Source: a virus
Lineage: Duplodnaviria > Caudoviricetes
Direction: 5' to 3' (one strand)
DNA length: 64,000 nucleotides
Virus record (IMG/VR): IMGVR_UViG_3300017432_000006
Location: 8,857 to 72,856 of that record
The notes below the pieces were generated by a model that was not told the origin of the DNA, searched no databases, and saw only the letters and a list, made by a program, of their open reading frames with translations. This document shows positions 11,418 to 61,710 of this stretch, piece after piece. Within the stretch, counting starts at the first letter, position 1. Each line of letters begins with the position of its first letter. Both the position numbers and the translations under genes were made by a program.

Positions 11418-11433
11418 TTGACCTCATTATACC

Positions 11434-45513: not shown

Positions 45514-45696
45514 GACTCAAGAGTACGACAAAGACGGAAACGTCACAGAAAGACCATCAACCCTACGCGAAGTCGTAGGGTTTACTCTTTGTACCGTACT
45601 GGACAGTGTTCCCACGGTTTACCAAGGAGATGCCGGTCTACACATGGGCCGGGGACATTGGGGATGCCGCCACCAAATAGGCAGCAGAATAGCAGG

Positions 45697-48480: not shown

Positions 48481-48631
48481 CCGGGGCTTCGTTACCAATT
48501 TGTTACCTAATTTGCAGATTCAAAATTTTAGTATGCGGGAATTACTAACGGATGGTGTCTGGAAAGCATAAAAGGCATTTCCAATTAGTGCGCACATAAG
48601 AGCAGTTTTAATTCATGCTCAGGAATTGTTT

Positions 48632-48793
48632 TCAGTTGATTCGCGCCCCCGGAAGAAAGTCATTCATTCCGAAAGTAGAAACCCAACCATCCTCCATCGT
48701 GAATGTGATTGTCTCACCATCAAAAGAAACAACGGCCTGAGTAACCTTGAATCCGCTGATGATATCACCAACGAGAATCTGCGAAGCCTTCAT
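48632..48793 (-). CDS. Small beta-barrel-like early protein (53 aa)
   Basis: MKASQILVGDII...; RBS AAAGGA. Confidence 0.6.
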   Translation of the reverse strand: MKASQILVGDIISGFKVTQAVVSFDGETITFTMEDGWVSTFGMNDFLPGARIN

Positions 48794-48860
48794 TTCAATT
48801 CCTTTGTTCGATGGGGAGGGGTGGGAAGTTTAAAGACATTCCCAGGTCTTAGAACTTAGA

Positions 48861-49094
48861 TCAGAGGAACTTGCCGGAAGCGGTGAGAAGCATTCCGCAA
48901 GAAACGCACTTGTGAGCCCCAACAGAAGCCTTGAAGTGCATATCCCCACCACACTTACAGGTCTCCGTACCGTGCTCACCAGAGCGCGTGTACTCGTCAC
49001 GGATAGCGGCCACCTCATAGCCGTGCTCATCCGTACCCGCGTAGGTGGTGTGGGCGCGAGCAACAGCGGCGGCGAACCAGGGGTTGTGCTTCAT
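48861..49094 (-). CDS. Zn-ribbon early protein
   Basis: CKCGG...CVSCG; first gene after promoter 49166. Confidence 0.7.
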   Translation of the reverse strand: MKHNPWFAAAVARAHTTYAGTDEHGYEVAAIRDEYTRSGEHGTETCKCGGDMHFKASVGAHKCVSCGMLLTASGKFL

Positions 49095-49138
49095 GACTGC
49101 CTCTCCGTTGGGGGACCCTCCCCCTTCCTTGTGCCTTA

Positions 49139-49166
49139 AGTCTATGGCATACAGGCACAGTGTCAA
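49139..49166 (-). promoter_or_regulatory. Early promoter TTGACA-16-TAGACT with tandem ARG-like boxes at 49189-49222
   Basis: Consensus hexamers; conserved leader to GGAGAGG-ATG. Confidence 0.8.
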
Positions 49167-49231
49167 GCCCAAACAGCAAAATCCCCAATGAATTTTCATG
49201 CATGGGTGTGCATGATCATGCAGTGTCCGTA

Positions 49232-49362
49232 ATGTCCGATTTGTCCCTTTTGCCCTAGAGTGACTGCTGGCACTTTCAGAATGTCCGTTTTGTCCCTGCC
49301 AGGGTCAATGTCCGATTTGTCCCCCGCCCCATGGGCGGTATCCCATATGTCCGTTTTGTCCT
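49232..49362 (+). repeat. Four iterons ATGTCCGWTTTGTCC
   Basis: Copies start at 49232, 49281, 49308 and 49347. Confidence 0.85.
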
Positions 49363-49470
49363 AGGTTGTACTGATATATCCTGACATATCGTGATTTGGC
49401 CCTGTTGTCCCTTTACCACAAAGGCCGGGGATGGTGAGGGTAGTTTAGCCACATACCCTAGGTGGTAGTA

Positions 49471-49611
49471 TCACAGATTCCAGATAGATTCGATTGTCTC
49501 TAGCGTAGCCTCATAAGCCTCAGCCTCTTTGATGTTTCCTTCCTCCCGGCATTCCTCAGCACACTCAGAAATCATCTTGTGAAGCCGGTTAGCCTTTTCG
49601 TCAAAAGCCAT
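49471..49611 (-). CDS. Small acidic early protein (46 aa)
   Basis: Flanked by two pseudoknot elements; RBS AGGA. Confidence 0.6.
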   Translation of the reverse strand: MAFDEKANRLHKMISECAEECREEGNIKEAEAYEATLETIESIWNL

Positions 49612-49681
49612 TGTTTGTCCTGTCTGTGAGAAAGGGCGGGGGATTGGTGGGCAGTTTTACTACTTACCCAGGTAGTCCTAA

Positions 49682-49855
49682 CTAGGAAGCGATACGGACG
49701 ATGCGACGGCGGGTGATCTGGAACTTAGAGATGCAGTTATCACCAGTAAGGGTAATCACCTTCCCCGTCTCCATGGAACGTGCCTCACCGTAACCCAGGA
49801 ATTCGAAGTGCTCGCCATTGGTGTAACGGATGAGGACGGTACCGACGGTCTTCAT
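49682..49855 (-). CDS. Early protein (57 aa)
   Basis: First gene after promoter 49928. Confidence 0.65.
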   Translation of the reverse strand: MKTVGTVLIRYTNGEHFEFLGYGEARSMETGKVITLTGDNCISKFQITRRRIVRIAS

Positions 49856-49898
49856 GATTCCCTCTCCGGTTGGGGTCTTTCCCCTCCCTGTAAGCACC

Positions 49899-49928
49899 AT
49901 GGTAGTAGGGGTTGGGGGAGTCTGTCTA
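49899..49928 (-). promoter_or_regulatory. Early promoter TAGACA-18-TACCAT with a TGTAC direct repeat at 49948-49964
   Basis: Hexamers plus conserved leader. Confidence 0.7.
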
Positions 49929-50049
49929 CTCGAAACGGCAAGATTTTTGTACTGACTTTTGTACCGGGTCACCGCCCGCAGGGTGGTTGCGTGTTCAACC
50001 AAATGTGTTGTGTGAGAATGGTTTTCAGCAATAGTGGAAACGGCGGGTG

Positions 50050-50202
50050 TTAGTCAGGGTTAGTCATATCCCTAATGTAGTAACTAACAGAGGTGTATTC
50101 CCTAGACAAAGAATTGCGGTACTCAATTGCAGCGGCATGTGTATCGAATGGTCCATACACATCAGCAGGGTATCCATAAATGGTAGCGACAATGCAGCAC
50201 AT
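50050..50202 (-). CDS. Early protein (50 aa, YGPF motif)
   Basis: RBS AAAGGA; MCCIVATIYGYPADVYGPFDTHAAA. Confidence 0.55.
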   Translation of the reverse strand: MCCIVATIYGYPADVYGPFDTHAAAIEYRNSLSREYTSVSYYIRDMTNPD

Positions 50203-50404
50203 GCGGTAAATCCTTTCGTTTTGTGGGGTATTTGCGGAATTAATTGCGGAAAATGGCCGAATTTGCGGAAAAAGGGGCGCTATATGTAAAAAACCAATGC
50301 CTAAAAATCGGCTGTCACAGAATTTTTGTTCAACAATTCATTTTTGTCACATGAATGCTAACCTTGTTCATCTACACGTTCGGTGCGCTATATCTTCGAC
50401 CTTT

Positions 50405-51072
50405 TCAGTAAACCGTCCGGTAGTCCGTTATCTCTATCACTGTGGTATGTACTTCAATAGGATCGCTAGGGGTTGCTATCTCTTCCCGCGTCTCCCGCGC
50501 CGCCTGTAATGTTGGGTATTGCTGCCCACCGAACCAAATGCTTTCTTGTCTCACTGTGGGACGTTTGCTGTAAGTGCTTTCTATCTCATTCATCAAACCC
50601 CGCCCGTCCGGCTGTAGTCGAATAGCGCCTTCTCTAGATACTTACACATATCACGATACTCAATTAAGTTCTTTCGTGCTTCGTAAAAGGTGTGTAGTGC
50701 AAAATACTCTGAATCATTGTTAATAAGGCTTGCCACTTCAACCCCGCGCCTTTTCTACATTGACACCAGTAACAATGAATCCGTAGGCAATGTTCTCCCG
50801 AGTCTCAATCTCTTCAACATTCATTTCAACCCCGCGCCTCATCGTAGTTGTCAATAGCCGTAGCGACCATCATTCGCATATCCCGCACATCATCCCGGCG
50901 CATTCCGTCAAGCATTCCGAGGAACATCTTTGCAGCGTCATACTCAGCGTCATTGTTGATGAATGCCCTAGGCTGATAAACCATCTTAACCCCGCCGATT
51001 CTTGAGAATGTCCCTAATGTCAAGCAATAGCCAACAGATAACCACTAGCAGAAAGAAGATACCAACGTCCAT
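50405..51072 (-). other. Chain of five translationally coupled mini-ORFs (50986-51072, 50826-50984, 50738-50824, 50593-50736, 50405-50593)
   Basis: Each start is preceded by GCGGGGTT; lengths 28, 52, 28, 47 and 62 aa. Confidence 0.65.
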
Positions 51073-51144
51073 CCTAACCCCGCCTTTTCGTTGTTGTGCG
51101 CTATTGGTGTGGGCCTTTTACCGACAATGCCCAGGTCTATTCAC

Positions 51145-51306
51145 TTACTTGTCCCAACGAATGTTCGTCTTAACCCATTCACGCATTCCCTCGTCACCCT
51201 CAGAAAGCATCTTCTCATAAAGGTCAATCATTGCGGCCTGATAGCCATTCATGTGCCACTTTGTCTGAGTAGTACCATTGGGGGCGTAAGCGGGAACAAC
51301 GCGCAT
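51145..51306 (-). CDS. Early protein (53 aa)
   Basis: Between two pseudoknot elements; RBS AAAAGG. Confidence 0.6.
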   Translation of the reverse strand: MRVVPAYAPNGTTQTKWHMNGYQAAMIDLYEKMLSEGDEGMREWVKTNIRWDK

Positions 51307-51384
51307 TGTTTCGGCCTTTTCTGTGAATGGTGCCGGGGTTTTGGTGGGGCCTTTTAGAATGTCATGCCCAGGACATTTGCTGAA

Positions 51385-51549
51385 TCAGTAAACAGTGACG
51401 AACAAATCACGCTGACGGTGAATCCGCTGAGTCTTTCCGTCAGCCGCAACAAAGAGGATCGTAACAAAGTCACTGTAACGGTGCGCGGCGGTCACCGTAC
51501 CCTCATCGATGACGTCCCCGGCCTCAAGGTCCCAAACGATCTTCTTCAT
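51385..51549 (-). CDS. Small beta-barrel-like early protein (54 aa)
   Basis: First gene after promoter 51623; paralog of 54443..54622. Confidence 0.7.
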   Translation of the reverse strand: MKKIVWDLEAGDVIDEGTVTAAHRYSDFVTILFVAADGKTQRIHRQRDLFVTVY

Positions 51550-51595
51550 GATTCCCTCTCCGTCCGGGGGACGTTCCCCCTTCCTTGTAAGACCT

Positions 51596-51623
51596 AGCGT
51601 ACACCATCTAGGGGCGTGGTCAA
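51596..51623 (-). promoter_or_regulatory. Early promoter TTGACC-16-TACGCT with a perfect CRP-type site at 51644-51659
   Basis: TGTGA-CGTGCA-TCACA. Confidence 0.75.
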
Positions 51624-51659
51624 CCCCAAACCGCGCGGGTCAGTGTGACGTGCATCACA

Positions 51660-51806
51660 TCACGGACGGTCAACGAACCTAACCGTAAATTCCTCCGTAT
51701 CATTAGACTTACTGACATTCTCATAAGCATCATCAATGTCGTCAAAGGGCCCGGTAATTCCGAGAATAAAAGCGTTCTTTGCGTCCTGCTTAACGATAAC
51801 GTACAT
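51660..51806 (-). CDS. Early protein (48 aa, GPF motif)
   Basis: RBS GAGGG. Confidence 0.55.
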   Translation of the reverse strand: MYVIVKQDAKNAFILGITGPFDDIDDAYENVSKSNDTEEFTVRFVDRP

Positions 51807-51814
51807 TCTACTAA

Positions 51815-52027
51815 TCACTCACCCTCACGATAGACAATGGTGTCGGAAGTGTCATACTCGGGAACACGAACAGGATTCATCCAAATGCTGCGTCGAACGT
51901 CAGCATTCCTTGACAGCAATTCATCACGCAATCCCCGCCGGGCGGCAATCAAAGGGCCTACACAATCGCGCGGGACTCGAACGTGCCAGATACCAAAACC
52001 GTTAGCCCAGGTGGTAACCATCGTCAT
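51815..52027 (-). CDS. Early protein (70 aa)
   Basis: RBS AGGA after a pseudoknot element. Confidence 0.65.
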   Translation of the reverse strand: MTMVTTWANGFGIWHVRVPRDCVGPLIAARRGLRDELLSRNADVRRSIWMNPVRVPEYDTSDTIVYREGE

Positions 52028-52092
52028 TCCTGCTTTCTTTGTAGGTAATGGTGGGGCCTTTTACAGACATGCCCGGGTCTATTGTTCGGATA

Positions 52093-52398
52093 TCACATAA
52101 AACGCATCATTGCACGGTCAAGACGAGCCATCTTCTCATCGAAAGACAGTTCGACACTGGCAAGAATCATTGCGCGATAACGGGCGCCGATCTTTCGGTT
52201 GGTCTCCCGCGCGTCCCGCGCCGCCCACTCAGCCTGCCGCGCGCTAGCCACCGTGGCGCACGTTCCAGCGTGGTCCCCACGGCTGTAGTAACCAGAAGCG
52301 TACTCAGCGGAGAGGTTAACCGTAGCACCGAAGCACGTTCCGACCATGGTGCCACACTCAGCGCACGCCCGGACACTGTGAACACGATTCGTCGCCAT
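52093..52398 (-). CDS. Early protein with CxxC (101 aa)
   Basis: First gene after promoter 52469; RBS GGAGGGAG. Confidence 0.7.
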   Translation of the reverse strand: MATNRVHSVRACAECGTMVGTCFGATVNLSAEYASGYYSRGDHAGTCATVASARQAEWAARDARETNRKIGARYRAMILASVELSFDEKMARLDRAMMRFM

Positions 52399-52439
52399 GG
52401 TGCTCCCTCCCGGTAGGGTCCCTCCCTGCCGTTGGGTCA

Positions 52440-52469
52440 AGTATAGGCACGGCAGGGAGGGGCGGTCAA
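52440..52469 (-). promoter_or_regulatory. Early promoter TTGACC-18-TATACT with a GTGA-N7-TCAC site at 52492-52506
   Basis: Near-consensus hexamers. Confidence 0.8.
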
Positions 52470-52502
52470 CCCGAACGAACAACTACTTTGGGTGACTGCC
52501 GA

Positions 52503-52862
52503 TCACTCAAAGTCAAACGAGGGACGACGAATGCTGTAACCGGCAATTCGGTAATCGGGAAGCCCGGCAATCTGAGAAAGCACAGAATCAACCTCGAAAA
52601 CATCGAGCCAACCGATAACATCACCAGTGACCGGGGTTCCATAGGTAATGTCACCATCCTCATTCAGAACAGCAATCTCCCAAAGACCATCCCGACCACC
52701 ATAACTACCAGAGTGAGAAATGATAGAAGCGGCAAAACCGTTCTCAAAAAGAATGACAATTCGCTTACTGTTGGGAATGCCGTCAATAGCGCCCGCCTCA
52801 ATCACAACACCATTGTTGTGAAGGGTAAGCATGTTTCCGGTGATGGTGGCGAGAGCAGACAT
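52503..52862 (-). CDS. Conserved phage protein (119 aa)
   Basis: FENG..ASII....SYGG..GLWEIAVL......Y.TP.T.DV.GWL pattern, common in diverse phages. Confidence 0.7.
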   Translation of the reverse strand: MSALATITGNMLTLHNNGVVIEAGAIDGIPNSKRIVILFENGFAASIISHSGSYGGRDGLWEIAVLNEDGDITYGTPVTGDVIGWLDVFEVDSVLSQIAGLPDYRIAGYSIRRPSFDFE

Positions 52863-52927
52863 TGTTTTTCCTTTCCAAGAATGGCCGGGGGATTGGGCCT
52901 TTTTGTATCTTGCCCAGGATATTTAGA

Positions 52928-53065
52928 TCAGTAGCAGTGAATGCACTCGTGATCGGGGTTACCAATCGCGGCAATGCAATCCATCATCCCGAAGAAGTCA
53001 TCAGCGTGCTCATCCTCGGGACCGAACTTTGCCGGGTCATCCTCGAAGTCAAAGTCAAAAGCCAT
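52928..53065 (-). CDS. Very acidic Cys/His-containing early peptide (45 aa)
   Basis: First gene after promoter 53141. Confidence 0.65.
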   Translation of the reverse strand: MAFDFDFEDDPAKFGPEDEHADDFFGMMDCIAAIGNPDHECIHCY

Positions 53066-53111
53066 GATTTCCTCTCCGGTCCGGGGGTCCGTCCCCCTTC
53101 CTTGTGTCTTT

Positions 53112-53141
53112 AGAGTAAGCCATGGGGAGGGGTAGGTGCAA
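53112..53141 (-). promoter_or_regulatory. Early promoter TTGCAC-18-TACTCT with tandem ARG-like boxes at 53165-53198
   Basis: Hexamers plus conserved leader. Confidence 0.7.
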
Positions 53142-53245
53142 GCCGAAACCGAAGATTTTTCCCATGAATTTTCATGCATGGTGGCGCATGATCATGCATG
53201 GGCCGGGGAGGTTAGGCAGTTTATTCACATACCTAGGTGAGAATG

Positions 53246-53668
53246 TCACCCAAAGAAATCCGGCAGGGCAACCGGGTCATTCATGGTGCCATTCTTGAAG
53301 TTGTAAAGCACCCAAGCCGTGCGACCATTCCCGTCAGTGAACGGGTGAATCCAAAGAAACTCCTTAATCCATTCATCGACAGTAAGGTCATTGCCATGCA
53401 CGATAAGGCCAGAAACAAGCCGAACAACATCAGCGGCATTTGCAGCCGTACCACCATTGGCAAAGGTAACCGGCGTCTTTCGGTAAACCCCGCCATTGTC
53501 CGGCTCAACAATACCGGCAAGAATAGCGATGCTGCCCATCGTGATATCGGCGGGAGAAAGCGAAGAAGCGTACTCGTAACCCCGAATCAGTGTCCAAAGG
53601 CGCTCAATTCCAACGTGCTGCCGCTCGCACTCAATAGCAGCCGCAGAAGCAATCGCGTGAATGTTCAT
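53246..53668 (-). CDS. Fic/Doc family protein
   Basis: HPFTDGNGRTA Fic signature; YR...V.F flap motif. Confidence 0.9.
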   Translation of the reverse strand: MNIHAIASAAAIECERQHVGIERLWTLIRGYEYASSLSPADITMGSIAILAGIVEPDNGGVYRKTPVTFANGGTAANAADVVRLVSGLIVHGNDLTVDEWIKEFLWIHPFTDGNGRTAWVLYNFKNGTMNDPVALPDFFG

Positions 53669-53736
53669 CGAATTCTCTTTCTGTCGTTTTCGGGAATGGG
53701 TGTGGGCCTTTTAACATCATGCCCAGGATGTTTGAA

Positions 53737-53880
53737 TCAAGCCATAGAACGGAAGTCAACCATGTGGGTAAGATTTCCATTCTGAATCTTGCACCAGCCA
53801 AAAACAAATTCAATGACAGTACCGGTGCGAGTCATTCCCGAAAGGTCGCGCCCGACGATCTTGTCACCAATGTTCGGCAT
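53737..53880 (-). CDS. Small SH3/KOW-like early protein (47 aa)
   Basis: First gene after promoter 53954. Confidence 0.65.
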   Translation of the reverse strand: MPNIGDKIVGRDLSGMTRTGTVIEFVFGWCKIQNGNLTHMVDFRSMA

Positions 53881-53925
53881 GATTTCCTCTCCGGGGGAAG
53901 GTCCCTCCCTCCCCCTGCAAGCACA

Positions 53926-53954
53926 AGGGTAACGGTCTGGGGGAGGGTTGTCTA
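53926..53954 (-). promoter_or_regulatory. Early promoter TAGACA-17-TACCCT with tandem ARG-like boxes at 53977-54010
   Basis: Hexamers plus conserved leader. Confidence 0.7.
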
Positions 53955-54035
53955 CTCGAACGGCAACTTTTTCCCATGAATTTTCATGCACGACCATGCA
54001 TGATCATGCGCGACGCTGAGTGTCTTTGATCCTCG

Positions 54036-54221
54036 TTACTTCTTCCTGTAAGACGCGCGAATGATGACGATAGCGGCAACAATACCGATAACGAGATTGA
54101 CACCAATAGGCATCATGACAACCGCCGGGGATAGGGTGAACATCGTCAGAATACCGGCAATGATCATACCAGCGAAAACATAGCACCCAACAATAATGAT
54201 ACCGGCGGCTGTATTGCTCAT
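54036..54221 (-). CDS. Two-TM membrane protein (61 aa)
   Basis: Hydrophobic; start at ATG 54221, just after the upstream stop. Confidence 0.6.
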   Translation of the reverse strand: MSNTAAGIIIVGCYVFAGMIIAGILTMFTLSPAVVMMPIGVNLVIGIVAAIVIIRASYRKK

Positions 54222-54225
54222 TGTA

Positions 54226-54378
54226 TTAAACCCAATCGCTAACGGTGCGGGAAACCTTGACGTAGGAATAGTTGCCCATTCCAGCATACTGATTGACGTA
54301 GTAATCAGCCTGTGACTCGTCAAGACAAGGAAGAATGCTGTCGCCATTGATTCGCTTAACGCCCCACTCAGTACGCAT
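54226..54378 (-). CDS. Early protein (50 aa)
   Basis: RBS AGAGGA after a pseudoknot element. Confidence 0.6.
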   Translation of the reverse strand: MRTEWGVKRINGDSILPCLDESQADYYVNQYAGMGNYSYVKVSRTVSDWV

Positions 54379-54442
54379 GATTCCTCTTTCTGTTGTTGTT
54401 CAAGAATGGTGGGCAGTTTCTATTCATGCCCAGGAATAGAAA

Positions 54443-54622
54443 TCAGGAATTTCCCATTTCGAAAACCGTCAGCATCACATCCCGAAGAAAGCACTCACGA
54501 CCGTTAACACCATCATTGGTGAAACGAACATCAACAAACTCACTGTATCGGTAAACAGCGGTAACGGTACCGTATCCCATGACAACATCACCGATAGTCA
54601 GAGACTGTGCATCCTTGAACAT
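54443..54622 (-). CDS. Small beta-barrel-like early protein (59 aa)
   Basis: L.IGDV....GTVTAV.RYS.FV; paralog of 51385..51549. Confidence 0.7.
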   Translation of the reverse strand: MFKDAQSLTIGDVVMGYGTVTAVYRYSEFVDVRFTNDGVNGRECFLRDVMLTVFEMGNS

Positions 54623-54663
54623 GATTTCCTTTCCTGGCCGGGTCCCTCCCTGCCGATGTGATA

Positions 54664-54693
54664 AACCTATGCCCTGCCCGCTAGGTCTGTCAA
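54664..54693 (-). promoter_or_regulatory. Early promoter TTGACA-18-TAGGTT with a TGTAC direct repeat at 54713-54728
   Basis: Hexamers plus conserved leader. Confidence 0.75.
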
Positions 54694-54749
54694 CCCGAAA
54701 CCCAAGAAACTTTGTACCAATTTTGTACCAACCAAAAATCCATCCTACG

Positions 54750-54784
54750 GGCCGGTAGGCTGAGTGTGTACCTACCTACCGGCC
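54750..54784 (-). terminator. Hairpin/terminator after gene 54799..55197
   Basis: GGCCGGTAGG/CCTACCGGCC 10-bp stem. Confidence 0.55.
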
Positions 54785-54798
54785 TGTTCCTGGGACCC

Positions 54799-55197
54799 TC
54801 AGAGAGCGGCTACAGCGTGCCTAGCGCGTGCCTCATCAATGGGCAGGGGATAACCCGAGGAAGTACGGGAAAGGAAATCATCGGAACCCTTATCATAAGG
54901 CGTCAGCATATCGGCATCAAGAGCAAACAGATATGCCAGGAAGAATCCCCAAGAATCATAGGTGGCAGCATAGTCAAGGGAATAGCGGTCAACATTCTTT
55001 GCAGTACCGGCATTAACGCGCCTCTTTGAATGGGTCCCGTCACCGATCAACTTAACGGTAATGCCATTCTTGCGCTTAGTGCTACCGTGCCAATCGAAAT
55101 CATCAAGAATGACCTTACCGTGCCCGGCATTTCGCGCAGCATACTCAGTAGCAGAAACAATATCCTTGTAACCGATAACGTCAGAGTGAATACGCAT
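54799..55197 (-). CDS. Conserved hypothetical protein (132 aa)
   Basis: HGSTKR...AATYDSWG.FLA.LF..D pattern. Confidence 0.7.
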   Translation of the reverse strand: MRIHSDVIGYKDIVSATEYAARNAGHGKVILDDFDWHGSTKRKNGITVKLIGDGTHSKRRVNAGTAKNVDRYSLDYAATYDSWGFFLAYLFALDADMLTPYDKGSDDFLSRTSSGYPLPIDEARARHAVAAL

Positions 55198-55199
55198 GA

Positions 55200-55490
55200 T
55201 TACCTCTTAATCTTAGTCGCGGGAAGATTGAAGGGAATTGCTTCGATAAACCAATCACGATCAAAGCCGTAACCATCCTGCGCGTCGCAGAAAGCCTTAC
55301 CGTCCGCCCAATTGTCGAAGATAGCAACAACGTTAGGCGTACTATGCCAGGAATCGGCATTGCAATACTTCACCGCCCAAATGGTGTTTGTAAAGTCACC
55401 AATGGAAACAATGCTACTCATATCAATCCTCCCAATGCCCATCCATTGCATTGTCAACAATGGCATACTCTGAATTGTAGTGAATGTCAT
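55200..55490 (-). CDS. Hypothetical protein (96 aa; true start may be internal)
   Basis: ORF in series. Confidence 0.55.
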   Translation of the reverse strand: MTFTTIQSMPLLTMQWMGIGRIDMSSIVSIGDFTNTIWAVKYCNADSWHSTPNVVAIFDNWADGKAFCDAQDGYGFDRDWFIEAIPFNLPATKIKR

Positions 55491-55561
55491 GACTAGGCGC
55501 GGAAATCTCGCACGGGAAACGCTCGGGGGAATCGCGGAACCACATCACCGAATTACACACA

Positions 55562-55735
55562 TCAAACCTCTCGAATACGCATACGGTTGGCGTAGTTTGG
55601 CTGATTCTCTCGATACTCAGCAAAAGCAATCTCAGCGTCTTTGCGAGTATCCTTTGCCGGGCCGATAGGAAGCCATACCTGTGTCATTCTCGCGCCGCTA
55701 AACGGGTTGATCTTCTTAACCTCAACAACAAACAT
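55562..55735 (-). CDS. Early protein (57 aa)
   Basis: RBS GAGAGG. Confidence 0.55.
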   Translation of the reverse strand: MFVVEVKKINPFSGARMTQVWLPIGPAKDTRKDAEIAFAEYRENQPNYANRMRIREV

Positions 55736-55909
55736 GGGAATTCCTCTCAGAAAGCCGGGGGACGCTCTAGCGAAGAAACATACATCATATCGAAGGAAGG
55801 CGCCTTTGCCTTTGCCTTGAACATTCGCCGGAAGAAAGCCACGGGAATTCTCCTAATGTATTGCGAGGAATGGGAGGGTTAGTTTTACATCATAACCCAG
55901 GATGAGATA

Positions 55910-56053
55910 TCAGAAACGCTCGCGGCTGATAACCCGGTCGTCCTTGTCAAGAACGATGCGAACATTGTAGAGAAAGACGCCGTAAGGGTCAAGGATACGG
56001 TAAATGGGAAAACCGTTGTCATCGAAACCCATAAAACGCTCGCGGTTGTCCAT
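55910..56053 (-). CDS. Early protein (47 aa)
   Basis: First gene after promoter 56125; RBS GAAAGG. Confidence 0.6.
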   Translation of the reverse strand: MDNRERFMGFDDNGFPIYRILDPYGVFLYNVRIVLDKDDRVISRERF

Positions 56054-56096
56054 GGGTTCCTTTCTCGGGAAGGTCCGTCCCTCCCTGACAAGACCT

Positions 56097-56125
56097 AGTT
56101 AATCACCATCCGGCCCGCCCGTCAA
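56097..56125 (-). promoter_or_regulatory. Early promoter TTGACG-17-TTAACT with a CRP-like site at 56146-56161
   Basis: TGTGG-N6-TCACA. Confidence 0.65.
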
Positions 56126-56295
56126 GCCGAATCGGCGGGGTTGTGTGTGGTGTGCGTCACACTACGCAGAGTAACCGCCGGATACCGATTCTAGAAACCA
56201 CCCAACGGTGCTATTTCTAGAATCGGCCCGGAATTAGCGAGGATTGAACCAACAAATCCAAAGAACAACCAACAGGACAACTACAGGAATGCCAT

Positions 56296-56469
56296 TCATC
56301 GTCCGCGCCGAATGTCATTGAAGAAACGAGCCGTACCAGCGAAACTACCACCAGTCATGCAATACGCCGCCCAAATCTCGGAATTGGGAATGAAGTTGTC
56401 GGGGTTGAAGGGGTTACCAATGTCACTCCCGAAACGAACAGCATCGGCAATCATCGAAGTAGTGATCAT
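56296..56469 (-). CDS. Early protein (57 aa)
   Basis: First gene after promoter 56609 and the three-way-junction leader. Confidence 0.6.
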   Translation of the reverse strand: MITTSMIADAVRFGSDIGNPFNPDNFIPNSEIWAAYCMTGGSFAGTARFFNDIRRGR

Positions 56470-56502
56470 GATTTCTCTTTCTCGGGATGGAATGGTGCGG
56501 GA

Positions 56503-56575
56503 TTGTCAGGAAGCCGTTAACAGACCACAGACATTCGTTAAGGGATTTTTTGGTATCTCCCTCACTTCCTGACAA
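56503..56575 (-). ncRNA. Three-way-junction 5' leader RNA, copy A
   Basis: 11-bp P1 UUGUCAGGAAG/CUUCCUGACAA; homologous to 59817-59908 and 60754-60824. Confidence 0.65.
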
Positions 56576-56580
56576 GAAGA

Positions 56581-56609
56581 ACACTACGGGACCGCGCACC
56601 CAGAGTCAA
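56581..56609 (-). promoter_or_regulatory. Early promoter TTGACT-17-TAGTGT with a TGTAC direct repeat at 56618-56634
   Basis: Near-consensus hexamers. Confidence 0.8.
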
Positions 56610-56846
56610 GCCAGTTCTGTACCAACTTTTGTACCAAATTTTTTCAGCGTCTCCCGCGCCCAACCCCTCCCCCGGTACCCACCTACCCTGCCCTTCCTGG
56701 CAGGCTCTCAGTGTGCCCTACAGGCTCCCTAGCCTAGAAGTCTGATGGTGTGTAGTGGTCCGGGCCGGGGCAAGGAATGTCCGTCAAATCAAAGTCATAG
56801 TCTCTACAATGACAACAGATACCATCGGGTGTAAAGGAATGTCCCA

Positions 56847-57008
56847 TCAGAATTCCACCGCGATATCGAAATTCTCGCCCTCACTGGAAAGCCCGGCGTC
56901 AAATGCCGCACGAACAGCAGCGGCAATCATATTCGGAATGTCAACGTCAGCCATTTCAGCGCAATTGATGGAAAGATCACCGGCGTCATTGCGAACGGTA
57001 ATAAGCAT
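56847..57008 (-). CDS. Early protein (53 aa)
   Basis: TGATG coupling on both sides. Confidence 0.55.
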   Translation of the reverse strand: MLITVRNDAGDLSINCAEMADVDIPNMIAAAVRAAFDAGLSSEGENFDIAVEF

Positions 57009-57262
57009 CAGAAAAGGTTCCCATCCTGAGGAATAGCGGTGAAGAAATCAAAGGCAACAGCCTCGAACAAAGCATCACGCGCGGTTAGCGTAGTGTCCTC
57101 GTAGAACATATCCTGCGCGCGCGGGCAAATTACATCATACATGTAGCCATATGTCGCGGTATCCCAATAGGGACCGTCCGTACGCTCGAAAGCATAAAAG
57201 TAAACCGCCTCTCCCTCAAACCTCTCGGAATTGATTTGCTCGTCACGAATAGGATTGGTCAT
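57008..57262 (-). CDS. Acidic hypothetical protein (84 aa)
   Basis: RBS AGGAAG. Confidence 0.6.
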   Translation of the reverse strand: MTNPIRDEQINSERFEGEAVYFYAFERTDGPYWDTATYGYMYDVICPRAQDMFYEDTTLTARDALFEAVAFDFFTAIPQDGNLF

Positions 57263-57268
57263 TGCTAC

Positions 57269-57418
57269 TCACTTCCTGCGCTTGTAGTAATCGGGATCGC
57301 CGGTAATATAGGTGCCAGTGTGAATGATGATCTGTCCGTTAGCGTCAGTCACCTTAATGTGGTCGGGAAGCATCTTGTCTAGAACACGAATCATCTTGAC
57401 AGTGAATAGTGGTCGCAT
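57269..57418 (-). CDS. Early protein (49 aa)
   Basis: Open frame filling the gap between neighbours. Confidence 0.5.
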   Translation of the reverse strand: MRPLFTVKMIRVLDKMLPDHIKVTDANGQIIIHTGTYITGDPDYYKRRK

Positions 57419-57494
57419 AAGCATTCCCAATGGGTCGGGCGGGGGACACTAACTATCGCATCCCCCGCCATTGGTTGTCAACCCAGGAATGTAT

Positions 57495-57782
57495 TCAGTA
57501 AATCTTTCCCTGATGCTTAGAAGTAGTAACCGAATACTTTACAGGCGGCTTAACCTCAGTACCATCAGAAAGCACCCAAGCAATCGGCGTGCCGTAAGAG
57601 AGAACAGTGTAAACAATGTCATTTCGCTGCGCCCGGTACTGAGTAGCGTACTCACTAGGCATACGCCCGGAATCCCAATAGGCACCAGCCATAGCAGAAA
57701 GCGCACCGTGCGTGTCGAAAGGAATTCGCTTACGCCAGGAATCGGTAACATCAAAGGAGCGGGAGGAAATCTTAGCAGCCAT
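57495..57782 (-). CDS. Conserved phage protein (95 aa)
   Basis: Y.V.SYGTPIAW......KYS.TTSKHQ pattern; RBS AAAGGA. Confidence 0.7.
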   Translation of the reverse strand: MAAKISSRSFDVTDSWRKRIPFDTHGALSAMAGAYWDSGRMPSEYATQYRAQRNDIVYTVLSYGTPIAWVLSDGTEVKPPVKYSVTTSKHQGKIY

Positions 57783-57850
57783 TGTCGTTATCCTTTGTGA
57801 GTGATTGGTGCGGGATGATGTGTCAAGCGTATGTGTTGCGGCACTACTTG

Positions 57851-58144
57851 TCAAGCCGAGACGTTATCGGAAATCCACTCAGAACGAACATCGGAATCGT
57901 CGGAATTGTAAATGTCAAAGGGCATTTCTACCTCAGTGAAATTACCGTCAGTGTAATCGCTAAACCCCACCCGATAAGCAATAGGGTCCATTTCCTCAAG
58001 CACCCGCGCGGGATCAAAAGAACAGCCCGCGACATTGACCATCGGATAACACTCATTCAGCATATCCCGGTAAAGGTCATCCATTTCATCCTGAGTGTAA
58101 ACCGTATCATCGGTGACATAAACGGTGATGGTGCCGGAAGCCAT
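57851..58144 (-). CDS. Acidic conserved phage protein (97 aa)
   Basis: ML.ECYP.V.VAG..F..A.VL.E.DP.AY pattern. Confidence 0.7.
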   Translation of the reverse strand: MASGTITVYVTDDTVYTQDEMDDLYRDMLNECYPMVNVAGCSFDPARVLEEMDPIAYRVGFSDYTDGNFTEVEMPFDIYNSDDSDVRSEWISDNVSA

Positions 58145-58205
58145 TGCGATATCCTTTGTTCGGTTCGGGATGATGGTAAGAGTCTAGCCTATAGAACCGC
58201 GCGGG

Positions 58206-58487
58206 TCAAATCGTGGGGGAAATCCAGAAATGGTACCCACCAGCAGTCTCGGAAAACTCATTTGCATTCCCGATATTGTGCAGGGCAGTGTGAATGTCAA
58301 GCCAAATCTCGTCAGAAGTGATATCCATTCCATCATTCCAGCGAGGGTCACTGTCATTCTGAGAATCACCATCCCAGAAGTGATCAACAATACCAACGAG
58401 ATGTGCCACGGCATCCTCGAAAGAATCGAAAGTCTCCGGGTCATTCTCAGGAAGATAACCGGGCATGTTGTAACCGGCAGTGAACAT
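58206..58487 (-). CDS. Acidic hypothetical protein (93 aa)
   Basis: RBS AAGGAG before ATG 58487; AG.NMPGYLPE. Confidence 0.65.
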   Translation of the reverse strand: MFTAGYNMPGYLPENDPETFDSFEDAVAHLVGIVDHFWDGDSQNDSDPRWNDGMDITSDEIWLDIHTALHNIGNANEFSETAGGYHFWISPTI

Positions 58488-58780
58488 ATCAATTCTCCTT
58501 GAATGGGGACGGACGGTTAGCCAATTGACGGAACCGATAGGTGCGCGGGTGAATGATTCGGTTAAACAATCTCCTAAGCATTGACTTCCAATCGTCGGGG
58601 GATAATGCATTGTGAATGTGGTCCGTCCGGTTGATTCCGGTTCTTTGGGATTTGATAGTCCCAATGTGTTATCCGCTTATCGCGGGAATACACCAACGGA
58701 TACTAAGCCAGTGACAACCGAAACCGATTGTCGTTATTACTGGCTAGGCAGTTTGAATTCCTACCCAGGAATTGAAGGAA

Positions 58781-59026
58781 TCAGGCTTCCCTCTGCGCCC
58801 GGCGCCATGCCATAAAAGCATCACTCTCCCCATTAGCGATAATCTCGTCAATAAGAGCGTTAATCCGCTCCTTATCCTTTCGCATAGCCTTATCGCGGGA
58901 AACCTCCTCCCACACAGACATTCCGCAAAGACGGAAAGTGAGACAAAGAGCGTGAGAATCGTAAGACTGCTCCAACTTAGCCATACGCTCGAAACGGGCA
59001 ACACTCTCAGCCTTGAAGTCAGTCAT
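58781..59026 (-). CDS. Early protein (81 aa)
   Basis: First gene after promoter 59098. Confidence 0.65.
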   Translation of the reverse strand: MTDFKAESVARFERMAKLEQSYDSHALCLTFRLCGMSVWEEVSRDKAMRKDKERINALIDEIIANGESDAFMAWRRAQREA

Positions 59027-59069
59027 GATTCCCTCTCTCGGGCCGGTATCTCCTGCCCTTGTGACTACA

Positions 59070-59098
59070 ACTATACGCACGGGACGGGGGAGCGTCAA
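59070..59098 (-). promoter_or_regulatory. Early promoter TTGACG-17-TATAGT with a GTGA-N7-GCAC site at 59131-59145
   Basis: Near-consensus hexamers. Confidence 0.8.
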
Positions 59099-59381
59099 GC
59101 CGAAACCCAAGTTTTTTCTGACTACTTTGCGTGACCATGTTGCACGCTCAACTACTTGTCTCGTCACTGAGAGTAACCGTTGAAAGATATCCAGCCATAT
59201 ATGGGTGTGGGTATTCACCACATATGGCTAGGTAACCCCCAACGGGGGAGCATACATTACCCAGGAAGTATGCTAGTTCCATTCCCGCGAATTTGCCGTC
59301 CGATAGATAGGCTCTCAGGAAACGATTCGATGGGATTTGGTATTGCGTCCGCGTGTTAGGTATGCGCGGCCCACCATTGAA

Positions 59382-59726
59382 TCACTCAGCCGCGACCAGC
59401 GCAGGGTTAGCCTGAGCGTACTCGGTAACCGTACCGGTCGCAACCGCCAGGAGAGCAGCGTCCGCGATCTTGCCACGCGCGCCCACCTTAGCGCCAGCGT
59501 CCCGAAGAGCCTGCCGCGCGTCGTCAAGGTTGACCTTGACCGGACGACGCTGACCCTTGACCTTGACGTCAACGGTGGGGATGTGCTCGCCAGCGACGTA
59601 CCGGCGGTCAGCAGGCTTGCCCTTGTTAAAGGCAGCGATGACCTCAGCGGAGAACTTGCCGCGGGTGCCGACGGCCATACCAGCGGCGGCGGCGAAGGAA
59701 CGAACAGCAGCGGGGGAAGCAGACAT
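59382..59726 (-). CDS. lsr2: Lsr2-like protein with two tandem DNA-binding domains
   Basis: VRSFA...G.AVGTRGKF and ARQAL...G.KVGARGKI AT-hook-like RGK motifs. Confidence 0.75.
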   Translation of the reverse strand: MSASPAAVRSFAAAAGMAVGTRGKFSAEVIAAFNKGKPADRRYVAGEHIPTVDVKVKGQRRPVKVNLDDARQALRDAGAKVGARGKIADAALLAVATGTVTEYAQANPALVAAE

Positions 59727-59816
59727 AATCGGTGATCCATTCTGTGTGTGTGGTCGGAAGACTTTTGCAACCGATCCGGTGGTGATGGGTGAAACTCTAC
59801 AACCTGTGGAGCCTGT

Positions 59817-59908
59817 CTGTCAACCCGTAACCCCGGCCCGTTATCGGCCCGTTCATGATCGCTAGCAGGTTTTGGACTATCCTGCCGACCGGGGTTCCTT
59901 GCTGACAA
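59817..59908 (-). ncRNA. Three-way-junction 5' leader RNA, copy B (lsr2 leader)
   Basis: P1 AACCCCGG/CCGGGGUU, P2 GCAGG/CCUGC; same loop and junction motifs as copies A and C. Confidence 0.6.
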
Positions 59909-59913
59909 GAAGA

Positions 59914-59942
59914 ACATTACAGGTGCCGCTAGGTCCGGTCAA
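59914..59942 (-). promoter_or_regulatory. Early promoter TTGACC-17-TAATGT with GTAAC-N6-GTAAC at 59963-59978
   Basis: Near-consensus hexamers. Confidence 0.8.
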
Positions 59943-60034
59943 CCCCAAACACCAAGATTTTGGTAACGGTTGTGTAACGGTCTTGTGTCGTACAGGTGTT
60001 CGATGATTCAAAGTTAAACTACCTGTAAATACAG

Positions 60035-60062
60035 AAATCCCCCGGCAAAAGGCCGGGGGAAT
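60035..60062 (-). terminator. Intrinsic terminator
   Basis: TCCCCCGGC/GCCGGGGGA stem followed by UUU. Confidence 0.7.
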
Positions 60063-60068
60063 CCGTAA

Positions 60069-60245
60069 TCAAACCTCGTTATCCCTTTCAATCCAGTAGT
60101 GAGTATGGGCAACGGCTTCCCGATTAGCCATTCCTTCAAGGGAATAACCGAAAAGCGGACCGCATATCTTACAGGTAAGGAACCACCCATCTAATGCGCC
60201 GGGGCCACTAGCCTTTGTCGGCTTAACATCGACAGTGTGAAGCAA
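60069..60245 (-). CDS. Zn-finger-like early protein (58 aa)
   Basis: RBS AGGAG, TTG start; CKICG...H.H. Confidence 0.55.
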   Translation of the reverse strand: MLHTVDVKPTKASGPGALDGWFLTCKICGPLFGYSLEGMANREAVAHTHYWIERDNEV

Positions 60246-60354
60246 TGTATTCTCCTAAATGATTGATGAATGGGTGGCGGGATTTCATACCCGCTATCTC
60301 TGTGATTCGATCACAGTAAGTTTGTGAAGCATTCGACTCTACCCATTGTGGTAT

Positions 60355-60486
60355 TTAGTTGTCGCGCTTCCATTCACGCTTTTCTTTTGCCTTTTGCGCG
60401 CGCTTTGCCTTTTCGGTCCACCGCTTTGTTACCGGTTTGTCGTGACAAGCGCCGATCTTTGCGCCTAGGCTGTTCATCATTCGCAT
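60355..60486 (-). CDS. Small Lys/Arg-rich protein (43 aa)
   Basis: ..KRWTEKAKRAQKAKEKREWKRDN; paralog-like to 60554..60718. Confidence 0.6.
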   Translation of the reverse strand: MRMMNSLGAKIGACHDKPVTKRWTEKAKRAQKAKEKREWKRDN

Positions 60487-60553
60487 AACGGTATTGTATC
60501 CTAACCGTAGAGGGAATGGGAGGGTAGTTTATTGTCATACCCTAGGACAAAGA

Positions 60554-60718
60554 TTAGTGAATCTCCTTCTTCCACGCACGGTTCTCCCGCGTGCGAGCAA
60601 TTCGCTTGTGCTTCTTCCTGTCCTTCATGGAAAAGCAGCAGTCACAAGCGCGCTTCTTCCCGAAGTGAGCGTGCTCGGAAACCAAAACAGCGTGACGCAT
60701 CATGCGAGCCATAGCCAT
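60554..60718 (-). CDS. Small Lys/Arg-rich protein with CDCC (54 aa)
   Basis: RBS GAGGA; ..KDRKKHKRIARTRENRAWKKEIH. Confidence 0.65.
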   Translation of the reverse strand: MAMARMMRHAVLVSEHAHFGKKRACDCCFSMKDRKKHKRIARTRENRAWKKEIH

Positions 60719-60753
60719 TCCTCACTGTCGGGGGATGATGCCTAACCGTAGCG

Positions 60754-60824
60754 TGTCGGGAGCCGTTATCGGACCGTAGGTGATCGTTAAGGGGTTTTTT
60801 GGTCTGTCCCCTCACTCCCTGACA
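60754..60824 (-). ncRNA. Three-way-junction 5' leader RNA, copy C
   Basis: Close homolog of 56503-56575 with compensatory changes. Confidence 0.65.
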
Positions 60825-60830
60825 AGGAAA

Positions 60831-60859
60831 AACTTACAGGGTCCCGCGCCCGTGGTCAA
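60831..60859 (-). promoter_or_regulatory. Early promoter TTGACC-17-TAAGTT with GTAAC-N6-GTAAC (60869-60884) and two DnaA-like boxes (60889-60908)
   Basis: Near-consensus hexamers; TTCTCCACA and TTTTCCACA. Confidence 0.8.
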
Positions 60860-60918
60860 GCCCAAACGGTAACGAACAGGTAACGAAGTTCTCCACAGGT
60901 TTTCCACAGGTAGTGAAC

Positions 60919-60951
60919 AAAAGAAATCCCCTAGCAGTATCACTAGGGGAT
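60919..60951 (-). terminator. Intrinsic terminator
   Basis: ATCCCCTAG/CTAGGGGAT stem followed by UUCUUUU. Confidence 0.75.
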
Positions 60952-60962
60952 AACGGTAATTC

Positions 60963-61247
60963 TTAGTGCCAATGGCACTTATCAGGACAATTGCCATTCC
61001 AGATATCGACACCAGCCTCAATTCGGAATTCGGTATCCTGAATCACGCAGGGAAAGTTCGTGCCGTTGTTGGGGGAAAGGAAAAGAATTGCCTCCGTAAT
61101 CTCCTTAGCCATAGTGGGATAAGACTCAGCAAGCATTTGAAGGAATTCACAGCACTCATCAAAAGAAAGGCCAATCTTGTGATCGACGTAGTGCTTCCCG
61201 AAAGAGCCAGGAATACGGTAGTAAATACCGGCAGCAAACATCGTCAT
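60963..61247 (-). CDS. Early protein (94 aa)
   Basis: First gene after promoter 61318. Confidence 0.7.
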   Translation of the reverse strand: MTMFAAGIYYRIPGSFGKHYVDHKIGLSFDECCEFLQMLAESYPTMAKEITEAILFLSPNNGTNFPCVIQDTEFRIEAGVDIWNGNCPDKCHWH

Positions 61248-61289
61248 GATTTCCTCTCCCGCCCCGGTCCGTCCGGCGCCGATGAGTCA

Positions 61290-61318
61290 AAGGTAAGGGA
61301 TGGGGGAGCCAGTGTCAA
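61290..61318 (-). promoter_or_regulatory. Early promoter TTGACA-17-TACCTT with a perfect CRP-type site at 61329-61344
   Basis: TGTGA-CGTACA-TCACA. Confidence 0.8.
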
Positions 61319-61379
61319 GCCGAACCGATGTGACGTACATCACACCTGTAGGGGTTGCACCATGGGTTGCCATGCTGTA

Positions 61380-61710
61380 GAGTCGTGCCAACGACAACAG
61401 CACAGAGCACAACGACCGAACCGCCCGAACAGGGCAAATCGGACATTCGGTACAAACCGGGACGGGACGGGCGAACAGCCCAAAACGGACATGCGGGACA
61501 AACCACGCAAACCGGGACGGACGGGGCAAAACGGACATTCCGGGCAAACCGGGGCAAACCCGGACGGGCCGGGCGAACCGGACAAGCCGGGCGCAGAAAC
61601 ATGCTTTTACGAAACCTCGCCTTTACGAAGCGGGACTTTTTCATGGCATTACGAAACCTTTACGATGCTCACCATTTTCATGGGAAAATATAACGATTAC
61701 GTAACCTCAC
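61380..61710. repeat. Repeat-rich non-coding segment: inverted copies of the 49.2-kb iteron plus TTACG(A/T) repeats
   Basis: CAAAWCGGACAT cores within 61432-61446, 61479-61492 and 61524-61538; TTACG repeats across 61606-61710. Confidence 0.75.

Follow-up and report, generated by a model that had tools for sequence, protein, structure and literature searches.

The early region of the phage contig studied here raises a question of promoter design. Why should promoters of one family carry operator-like sites of different kinds at the same place, a short distance upstream of the -35 hexamer? The contig, IMG/VR record IMGVR_UViG_3300017432_000006, is a linear virus sequence of 72,856 bp from a phyllosphere metagenome, with a CheckV completeness of 55%. 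The window is the stretch of its bases 8857-72856 (64,000 nucleotides), and positions below are those of the window. According to the original prediction, 13 leftward promoters between 49139 and 61344 connect early gene cassettes to several host global regulators through helically phased operators. The explanation that we favour, with a probability of roughly 0.45, is that host ArgR, host CRP and probably a host response regulator bind in a defined operator slot and modulate subsets of the early cassettes. The slot would accept interchangeable contents, namely a tandem ArgR operator (three promoters), a CRP/GlxR palindrome (three), an OmpR-type GTTAC repeat (two) or a GTACAAAA repeat (three), and host ArgR hexamers, CRP dimers and probably also a host response regulator would occupy these sites. 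The site centres would lie about 53 or 63 bp upstream of the inferred start, with the second ARG box near -84, on one helix face and adjoining the contact zone of the RNA polymerase alpha C-terminal domain. Different subsets of cassettes would then respond to the arginine and cyclic AMP (cAMP) state of the host. Both the binding of host proteins and the sign of its effect we infer from the sequence.

The promoters form a family that a generic search does not resolve. A scan with the sigma70 consensus gave 17 matches against 16 expected in shuffles, which is not above chance, and an extended family motif was used instead, in which GTTTSGGS abuts TTGAC and TAnnnT follows after 16-18 nt. On the minus strand of the 72.9-kb contig this motif matches 14 times, and 13 of these matches fall within 49-61.4 kb; the entire plus strand has only 3. 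A shorter promoter core occurs 18 times genome-wide, against 3.6 expected. The family is confined to the coding strand of the 49-61.4 kb early block. All 13 promoters of the original prediction (numbered 1 to 13 below from right to left, all on the minus strand) are real and their coordinates hold, the -35 of the 56-kb promoter being corrected from 56127 to 56125, but the count was too low, as the family has at least 16 members. One of the additional members, 59823 (59794-59823), lies inside the leader of promoter 3, directly 5' of an Lsr2-like gene, and has no operator. Two others, within 57826-58209 and with the -35 at 58209 and 57854, overlap the stop codons of the upstream genes and have no operator slot. 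All three lack an upstream site because they overlap the leader or the end of the gene upstream.

In the cassettes, the order of parts is fixed. A terminator or post-stop hairpin is followed by an operator slot (about 16-35 bp), then optionally by an 11-bp A-tract; next come GTTTSGGS, the -35 and the -10, and finally a hairpin in the leader and a strong ribosome-binding site. Most promoters have the A-tract module, of the form AAAAATCTTGG, upstream of the GTTTSGGS element, and downstream of the promoters a G/C hairpin leader is followed by a GGAGAGGAAATC-ATG ribosome site. The 11-bp module is UP-element-like. The same layout is found in the early promoters of the Streptomyces phage Tomas, where a slot palindrome is followed by a AAAAGATCTT A-tract about 20 bp before the -35 and by the -10 TAGACT, and in the Rhodococcus phage Trina a GGTTTGG element likewise precedes the -35. 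A paper on transcription of Rhodococcus phage WC1 held no information on promoters. We regard the promoters as genuine early promoters of what appears to be the host sigma-A type.

What the slots contain was assessed by counting each motif class genome-wide and comparing with Markov shuffles, the motifs being matched as consensus patterns rather than weight matrices. Perfect copies of the palindrome TGTGA-N6-TCACA stand at 51644-51659 and 61329-61344, against an expectation of about 0.1, and a copy with one mismatch at 56146-56161. Three promoters have a 34-bp array of CATG-containing palindromes of ARG type, and three have GTACAAAA-N3/4-GTACA, with none expected. GTTAC-N6-GTTAC is found three times genome-wide against 0.23 expected, twice at promoters and once at the convergent end of the block (48491). 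These four recurrent classes are far above chance, and 11 of the 13 promoters have a credible upstream site. The original prediction had counted 12 of 13 sites and five classes, two of which are weak. The inverted repeat at 52499 has 4-bp arms and is equalled by 78% of random 50-bp windows (p=0.78), and the one at 59138, with 5-bp arms, by 34% (p=0.34), so that neither is better than chance. Since palindromes with 5-bp arms are frequent anyway, what makes the CRP-type sites significant is not that they are symmetric but that they recur with an exact sequence. A role of the palindromes as terminators is ruled out by their short stems and the lack of a T-run after them. The four unrelated motifs also rule out a single phage protein that binds all sites.

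The two promoters with chance-level palindromes are promoter 10 (52440-52506; -35 52464-52469, -10 52440-52445), where GTGA-N7-TCAC, centred at 52499, overlaps the upstream stop codon, and promoter 4 (59070-59156; A-tract, -35 59093-59098, -10 59070-59075), where AAGTAGT repeats flank a GCGTG-N9-CACGC whose centre is 39.5 bp from the -35. BldD boxes are palindromes of the AGTGA-Nm-TCACC type, and the idea that this developmental regulator acts at 52499 finds no support in so common a repeat. A different element, AAAGTAGT(T/C), is present upstream of both promoters (52469 and 59098, the element being at 52489 and 59128) and twice near 62.08 kb (62071, 62085), and a copy abuts a -35 in the 135-kb IMG/VR relative G001 (L082 15810).

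The arginine-regulator part of the prediction is borne out at the level of operator grammar. An ARG box is a palindrome whose half-sites, TGCAT/ATGCA or TGAAT/ATTCA, stand 4 bp apart, and a single ArgR hexamer binds a tandem of two boxes with centres about 20 bp apart. The ARG core was read off the S. coelicolor box table; the papers state no written consensus (PMC5839063). Tested S. coelicolor boxes, for example those of argG, argH and SCO2686, have the core TGCAT-N4-ATGCA, and the boxes of arg genes are adjacent 20-nt units (PMC5839063). The window has six ARG boxes at three promoters, one perfect, three of the form TGCAT-N4-ATTCA and two with one mismatch. In the distal position stands TGCAT-GATC-ATGCA or a variant of it with one mismatch, in the proximal position TGCAT-GAAA-ATTCA, and all three arrays have their box centres exactly 20 bp apart. 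Promoter 8 (53926-54010) has boxes at 53997-54010 and 53977-53990 (centres 54003.5 and 53983.5), an A-tract, the -35 at 53949-53954 and the -10 at 53926-53931, with the proximal centre 29 bp from the -35 edge. In promoter 9 (53112-53198) the boxes are at 53185-53198 and 53165-53178 (centres 53191.5 and 53171.5), the proximal centre is at 30 bp, and an A-tract precedes the -35 (TTGCAC, 53136-53141). Promoter 13 (49139-49222) has the perfect TGCAT-N4-ATGCA box at 49209-49222 and a second box at 49189-49202 (centres 49215.5 and 49195.5), the latter centred at 29 bp, with the -35 at 49161-49166 and the -10 at 49139-49144.

The two-box pattern was then scanned in prokaryotic genomes, one per species, and five actinobacterial loci among the matches listed were examined. 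At three of the five, the pattern is directly 5' of a gene for a 347-359-aa protein of the semialdehyde dehydrogenase family, the argC position; at one it is just past pheT, which in Actinobacteria precedes argC. The box core, the 20-bp spacing and the recurrence upstream of argC thus show that the phage arrays follow the genuine grammar of ArgR operators, the pattern being found at argC or pheT in four of the five loci. In IMG/VR, the two-box pattern is present in 58 other contigs, in a single copy in each except the phage contig L242, and some copies abut -35 hexamers.

The cAMP part is supported as well. CRP has the consensus TGTGA-N6-TCACA, its class I sites being upstream of the -35 (PMC10187061). 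Two perfect copies of this 16-bp CRP/GlxR palindrome and one with a single mismatch stand in slots. Promoter 1 (61290-61344) has the perfect site 61329-61344, centred 18 bp from the -35 (61313-61318; -10 61290-61295), promoter 11 (51596-51659) the perfect site 51644-51659, centred at 28 bp (-35 51618-51623, -10 51596-51601), and promoter 6 (56090-56161) the one-mismatch site 56146-56161, also at 28 bp (-35 56120-56125, weak -10). Perfect copies also occur in Trina (five), G001 (one) and the Streptomyces phage BillNye (one), and in Tomas there are none. At the Trina sites 129621 and 137263, 10 bp separate the palindrome from the -35, which places its centre at 18 bp; site 137263 is duplicated in the other repeat copy at 861, and a one-mismatch site at 134830 is centred at 19 bp.

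The same offsets occur in L242, an IMG/VR phage contig of 32% completeness that was found through its ARG pattern. Within 4.4 kb of this contig there are five perfect palindromes, beside four ARG boxes. The palindrome at 4537 is 28 bp from TTGACA on one strand, with a AAAAATCTTGG module between, and 18 bp from TTGACA on the other, and the sites 4368, 6887 and 5672 are also at 18 bp. The L242 locus and this contig have no detectable shared protein, and the same cis design is therefore most simply explained by shared host machinery. The two perfect consensus palindromes of the window, together with the 18- and 28-bp offsets in Trina and L242, support the predicted CRP-type reading.

Two side observations concern these relatives. 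In L242, region 4280-4600 has the four adjacent ARG boxes next to a perfect CRP-type palindrome, and a second palindrome is common to two divergent promoters, at 18 bp from one and 28 bp from the other. The terminal repeats of Trina each have three palindromes that differ from the 19-bp IdeR/DtxR iron-box consensus by at most 2 mismatches (left copy 336-354, 376-394 and 2816-2834), and a search of the rest of Trina and of four other records gave no such palindromes.

For the remaining two classes the cognate regulator is less easily named. Sites of OmpR-family response regulators such as MtrA, GlnR and AfsQ1 comprise two direct repeats of 5-6 bp with an 11-bp period. Binding sites of GlnR and AfsQ1 are of the GTnAC type, which the GTTAC repeat fits. 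The S. coelicolor MtrA consensus is (G/T)T(G/A)ACC-N5-GT(G/T)ACN, and the GTTACC-N5-GTTACC at 60869-60884 agrees with 11 of the 12 specified positions of this consensus, which is loose (PMC5650626). The site 59963-59978 is similar. A nitrogen- or cell-envelope-related reading (GlnR or MtrA), as first proposed, is thus plausible but not specific, and the repeat may be described as a plausible OmpR-family site. It occurs in promoter 2 (60831-60910), where GTTAC-N6-GTTAC at 60869-60884 is centred 17 bp from the -35 (60854-60859; -10 60831-60836) and a long leader follows, and in promoter 3 (59914-59978), where the copy at 59963-59978 is centred at 28 bp and an 11-bp A-tract precedes the -35 (59937-59942; -10 59914-59919).

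The GTACAAAA direct repeat is present in promoter 5 (56581-56635; GTACAAAA-N4-GTACA at 56618-56635, centre 16.5 bp, -35 56604-56609, -10 56581-56586, long leader), promoter 7 (54664-54729; GTACAAAA-N3-GTACA at 54710-54729, centre 27 bp, A-tract, -35 54688-54693, -10 54664-54669) and promoter 12 (49899-49966; GTACAAAA-N4-GTACA at 49945-49966, centre 27.5 bp, A-tract, -35 TAGACA 49923-49928, -10 49899-49904). We know of no cognate regulator for this repeat. DnaA boxes have the consensus TTWTNCACA and are usually clustered. Promoter 2 additionally carries a CCTGTGGA direct repeat (60888-60910), two 9-mers 11 bp apart, one of which fits a relaxed form of this box, while the other has one mismatch. 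CCTGTGGA occurs 5 times genome-wide against 2.4 expected, and the two copies upstream of 60859 are only loosely like reversed DnaA boxes. The proposed link to replication through DnaA is weak and not supported.

From promoter 13 to promoter 1, the site centres are 29, 27.5, 28, 29.5, 30, 29, 27, 28, 16.5, 39.5, 28, 17 and 18 bp from the upstream edge of the -35. The Rayleigh statistic for these values is R = 0.80-0.84 at periods of 10.5-11.5 bp (p of about 1e-4 against uniform placement). Of the three predicted distance classes, those now placed at 16.5-18 and 27-30 bp hold, whereas the 40-bp class consists of the chance-level palindrome of promoter 4. Three motif classes occur at both positions: the CRP type at 28, 28 and 18 bp, GTTAC at 28 and 17 bp, and the GTACAAAA repeat at 27.5, 27 and 16.5 bp. 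A comparison of promoters 3 (59942) and 2 (60859) explains the step, since they differ by an 11-bp A-tract insertion between an identical operator and an identical GTTTGGG element. The step of 10-11 bp thus arises because the 11-bp A-tract module is present or absent between the slot and the -35. The quantised spacing is real but modular, and since the cassettes are paralogous, the 13 values are not independent. In Tomas (800-12900), about 18 early promoters carry an identical 13-bp slot palindrome, GACCGG-C-CCGGTC, followed by AAAAGATCTT. Its centre is 27.5-30.5 bp from the -35 in most of them and 18.5 bp in one, and the recurrence of the same two positions shows that the position of the slot is conserved across the promoter family.

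If the spacing is modular and the cassettes are paralogous, the sites might have no regulatory role at all. The repeats would then be by-products of cassette duplication and recombination, and their fixed spacing would be inherited. A 90-97% identical phage from a second sequencing run (the X2 relative) bears on this explanation from both sides. It differs from the window by deletions or replacements of whole cassettes at 53065/53881, 49602/54422, 50590/50982 and 54223/54407, and at least its joint 53065-53881 is within repeated ribosome-site and leader sequence, which indicates recombination between paralogous cassettes, as expected of such by-products; the frequency of individual 5-bp-arm palindromes in random windows points the same way. 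The operators can be compared at promoter 49166, in one contig. There the ARG operator 49189-49222, the -35 and the -10 show no listed difference, whereas 4 substitutions and a 1-nt insertion distinguish the 17-bp spacer beside the operator, and 10 nt are inserted directly next to the distal box. An operator that stays unchanged while its flanks vary is not what a functionless repeat would lead one to expect. Moreover, the slot of otherwise paralogous cassettes is filled with different operators, its motifs are those of known host operators, and the palindrome is found again at an identical offset in Trina and in L242, the latter having no detectable protein in common with this contig. We therefore consider the absence of any regulatory role very unlikely.

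Alternatively, the slot could be bound by proteins that the phage encodes or delivers with the virion, for example repressors acting at the early-to-middle switch, and the likeness to ArgR and CRP sites could be convergence or deliberate competition. The uniform slot palindrome of about 18 Tomas promoters is the pattern expected if one phage regulator were dedicated to them, most early proteins of the present phage belong to no recognisable family, and the GGACA-N4-GGACA unit described below, which is common to this phage and Tomas, matches no host regulator known to us. Pfam searches of 30 early-block and flanking proteins detected no DNA-binding domain besides Lsr2, and PHROGs searches of 10 early proteins (9 of them among these 30) named only Lsr2. 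The ArgR N-terminal domain (PF01316) and the Crp-type helix-turn-helix (PF13545) were found in control bacteria, but neither was detected in this contig nor in five related or comparable records (Tomas, BillNye, Trina, G001 and L242). Four motif classes would require several phage regulators, two of these classes equal conserved host operators exactly, down to the 20-bp ARG tandem spacing, and the CRP palindrome has the same offsets in L242. Phage-made regulators therefore appear rather doubtful as occupants of the slot.

Finally, the sites could act as decoys. As phage DNA replicates, with perhaps two copies of the module per genome in a terminal repeat, the ArgR and CRP of the host would be titrated and its arginine, pyrimidine and carbon regulons derepressed to the benefit of the phage, any effect on the phage promoters being secondary. 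The sites are consensus-grade, repeated and probably of high affinity, they are placed outside the core promoters and would not be expected to occlude them, and the published ARG-box table includes pyrimidine genes and nrdA (PMC5839063). Three sites of each kind are, on the other hand, far fewer than the dense arrays expected of a sponge, and titration would not require a strict offset from the -35. Titration as the main function is quite unlikely in our judgement; it is not exclusive of slot occupancy by host regulators and is compatible with it.

Several points weigh against host ArgR and CRP as the proteins that act here. Most -35 hexamers are near consensus, and the promoters therefore do not look activator-dependent. 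The geometry is non-canonical for both proteins: the ARG boxes of arg operons overlap the core promoter, whereas those of the phage are centred further upstream, 29-30 and 49-50 bp from the -35 edge (roughly -64 and -84), and do not take such a repressing position, and class I sites of E. coli CRP are not canonically centred near -53, the position estimated here from inferred start sites. What the host ArgR and CRP recognise is extrapolated from other Actinobacteria. About 40 small early proteins without a recognisable fold could include phage regulators. Since the contig is 55% and L242 32% complete, the absence of a phage-encoded regulator from these two phages is not proven. The weakness of two of the five proposed motif classes also counts here. 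In its boldest form, the host-regulator explanation would have a virulent actinophage wire its takeover cassettes to at least three host sensors (ArgR for arginine, CRP for cAMP and a two-component regulator) through a plug-in slot at a fixed helical position, the design being shared across phages without detectable shared proteins and the contents being swapped by cassette recombination. We consider this full scheme unlikely.

The setting of the promoters is that of an early host-takeover-type module. The portal protein of the contig is 55-57% identical to those of Streptomyces Stanwilliamsviridae phages (e.g. BillNye, Muntaha and Tomas), and its ribonucleotide reductase is 72.6% identical to that of Trina. 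Gene order agrees with BillNye, in that one strand has ribonucleotide reductase, a lysin-like gene, portal and protease and the opposite strand a ThyX block, and synteny extends to Tomas. Tomas has a block of very small genes, 26 of them including an Lsr2-like gene, in its terminal repeat of about 12.7 kb, and Stanwilliamsviridae have early modules of roughly 11-13 kb in terminal repeats (PMC5764925). The counterpart here is 48.6-61.7 kb, with about 45 small leftward open reading frames, among them one for an Lsr2 DNA-binding-domain protein (59382-59726) and one for a Fic-domain protein (53246-53668). Many tiny genes behind their own host-type promoters, a feature of host-takeover modules, are found in this region of about 12.7 kb, with at least 16 promoters for about 45 open reading frames. 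It is likely that the region is the early host-takeover-type module of a Stanwilliamsviridae-like actinophage of about 130 kb. No terminal overlap was found at the contig ends, and we place the block in a direct terminal repeat, presumptively, from synteny with BillNye and Tomas only. A DNA search of the region against 50,697 phage records, in near and distant modes, gave no matches, Rfam found no family in 47-64 kb, a 132-aa early protein had no relative in IMG/VR, and 11-mer counts across related loci yielded no common motif.

Other features of the region deserve mention. A unit of 16-17 bp, GGGMCAAAWCGGACATT, contains GGACA twice with a 9-bp period. Its arrays at 49224-49362 (four copies) and 61426-61553 (three copies with a 46-bp period) bracket the early module in inverted orientation, and a 15-mer of it occurs in Tomas only in the terminal repeat, in the operator slot of the promoter of the Lsr2-like gene. 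Promoters 56609, 59942 and 60859 have a long leader in common (TTCTTGTCAGG...CCAAAAAA...CCCTTAACGA..., at 56503-56609, 59830-59942 and 60740-60859), which has no Rfam match. After many stop codons, about 30-40 nt ahead of the next start, there is a covarying hairpin of the CCTGGGCA...TGCCCA type with compensatory changes; examples within 48600-60550 are at 49642-49672, 51111-51134, 52054-52077, 53704-53727, 54404-54434 and 60512-60546. Just beyond the module, an endonuclease VII-family gene (61768-62406) lies on the opposite, plus strand, in a position comparable to that of the HNH endonuclease at the repeat boundary of Tomas. The rightward ThyX block encodes a homologue of Tad3-family Thoeris inhibitors (E=1.6e-39), and the neighbouring protein has a weak match to the 2'-5' RNA ligase superfamily; the pair corresponds to 45589-46116 and 46109-46657, both on the plus strand.

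Host regulator sites in the promoters of lytic phages have precedents, and the original remark that they would be unusual in a lytic phage was overstated. The virulent Bacillus phages phi29 and Nf have Spo0A boxes at their early promoters, with binding and repression shown experimentally (PMC2731898), and in alphaproteobacterial phages CtrA sites have been proposed, largely by comparative genomics, to serve "lytic deferment" (PMC9437464). The present phage resembles both in having candidate or consensus sites for host global or master regulators in lytic-phage promoter regions. Phi29 and Nf use one regulator with sites over the promoter, whereas here several candidates (ArgR, CRP and OmpR-type) are predicted from the sequence, upstream of the -35 and for an actinobacterial host. 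The CtrA phages depend on a single cell-cycle regulator in different hosts and have no modular slot with interchangeable sites.

Compared with class I CRP promoters, the half-sites and spacer are identical, the site is upstream of the -35 and an A-tract lies between, where class I promoters accommodate the alpha C-terminal domain of the polymerase, but the inferred centres are at about -53 and -63 instead of canonical E. coli positions such as -61.5 and -71.5, and the -35 hexamers are near consensus. As in bacterial ArgR operators, TGCAT-N4-ATKCA occurs twice at 20 bp, the difference being the lack of core-promoter overlap.

Among module-level parallels, the block of about 12 kb, presumably at a genome end, in which tens of tiny genes form numerous short operons that each have a strong host-type promoter and ribosome site of their own, resembles the modules of SPO1 and Stanwilliamsviridae. 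The host-takeover module of SPO1 was reportedly placed in the terminal redundancy by Stewart et al. in 1998, and we know of no host ArgR or CRP operators at SPO1 early promoters. That this early module has multiple promoters and lies in the terminal redundancy is documented (PMC6873191). The Tomas slot holds one uniform palindrome, whereas that of the present phage holds several kinds. The closest parallel to the shuffling of cassettes may be the promoter-early stem-loop (PeSL) cassettes of T4-type phages, which, as Arbiol et al. reportedly showed in 2010, shuffle small genes. In both cases, repeated units of an early promoter and a stem-loop flank small novel genes and act as recombination points for the gain and loss of cassettes, but PeSLs have not been described with interchangeable host-regulator operators. 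We found no paper on ArgR or CRP operators in actinophage early regions. Three elements are new here: several host-type operators are combined, the plug-in slot has a quantised spacing, and the setting is actinobacterial.

A culturable system exists in the Rhodococcus phage Trina, with its five perfect CRP-type sites and its iron-box-like sites in the terminal repeats. Consensus host operators offer a way of guessing to which clade the host of an uncultured phage belongs and which regulators matter to that phage. The portable promoter design, consisting of slot, A-tract and -35 with spacing quantised in steps of 10-11 bp, could, if the favoured explanation is right, be used to study the geometry of activation of actinobacterial RNA polymerase. 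If host ArgR and CRP do bind these sites, the phage would be a clear case of a lytic actinophage that couples gene expression in the first minutes of infection to the metabolic state of its host through several regulators.

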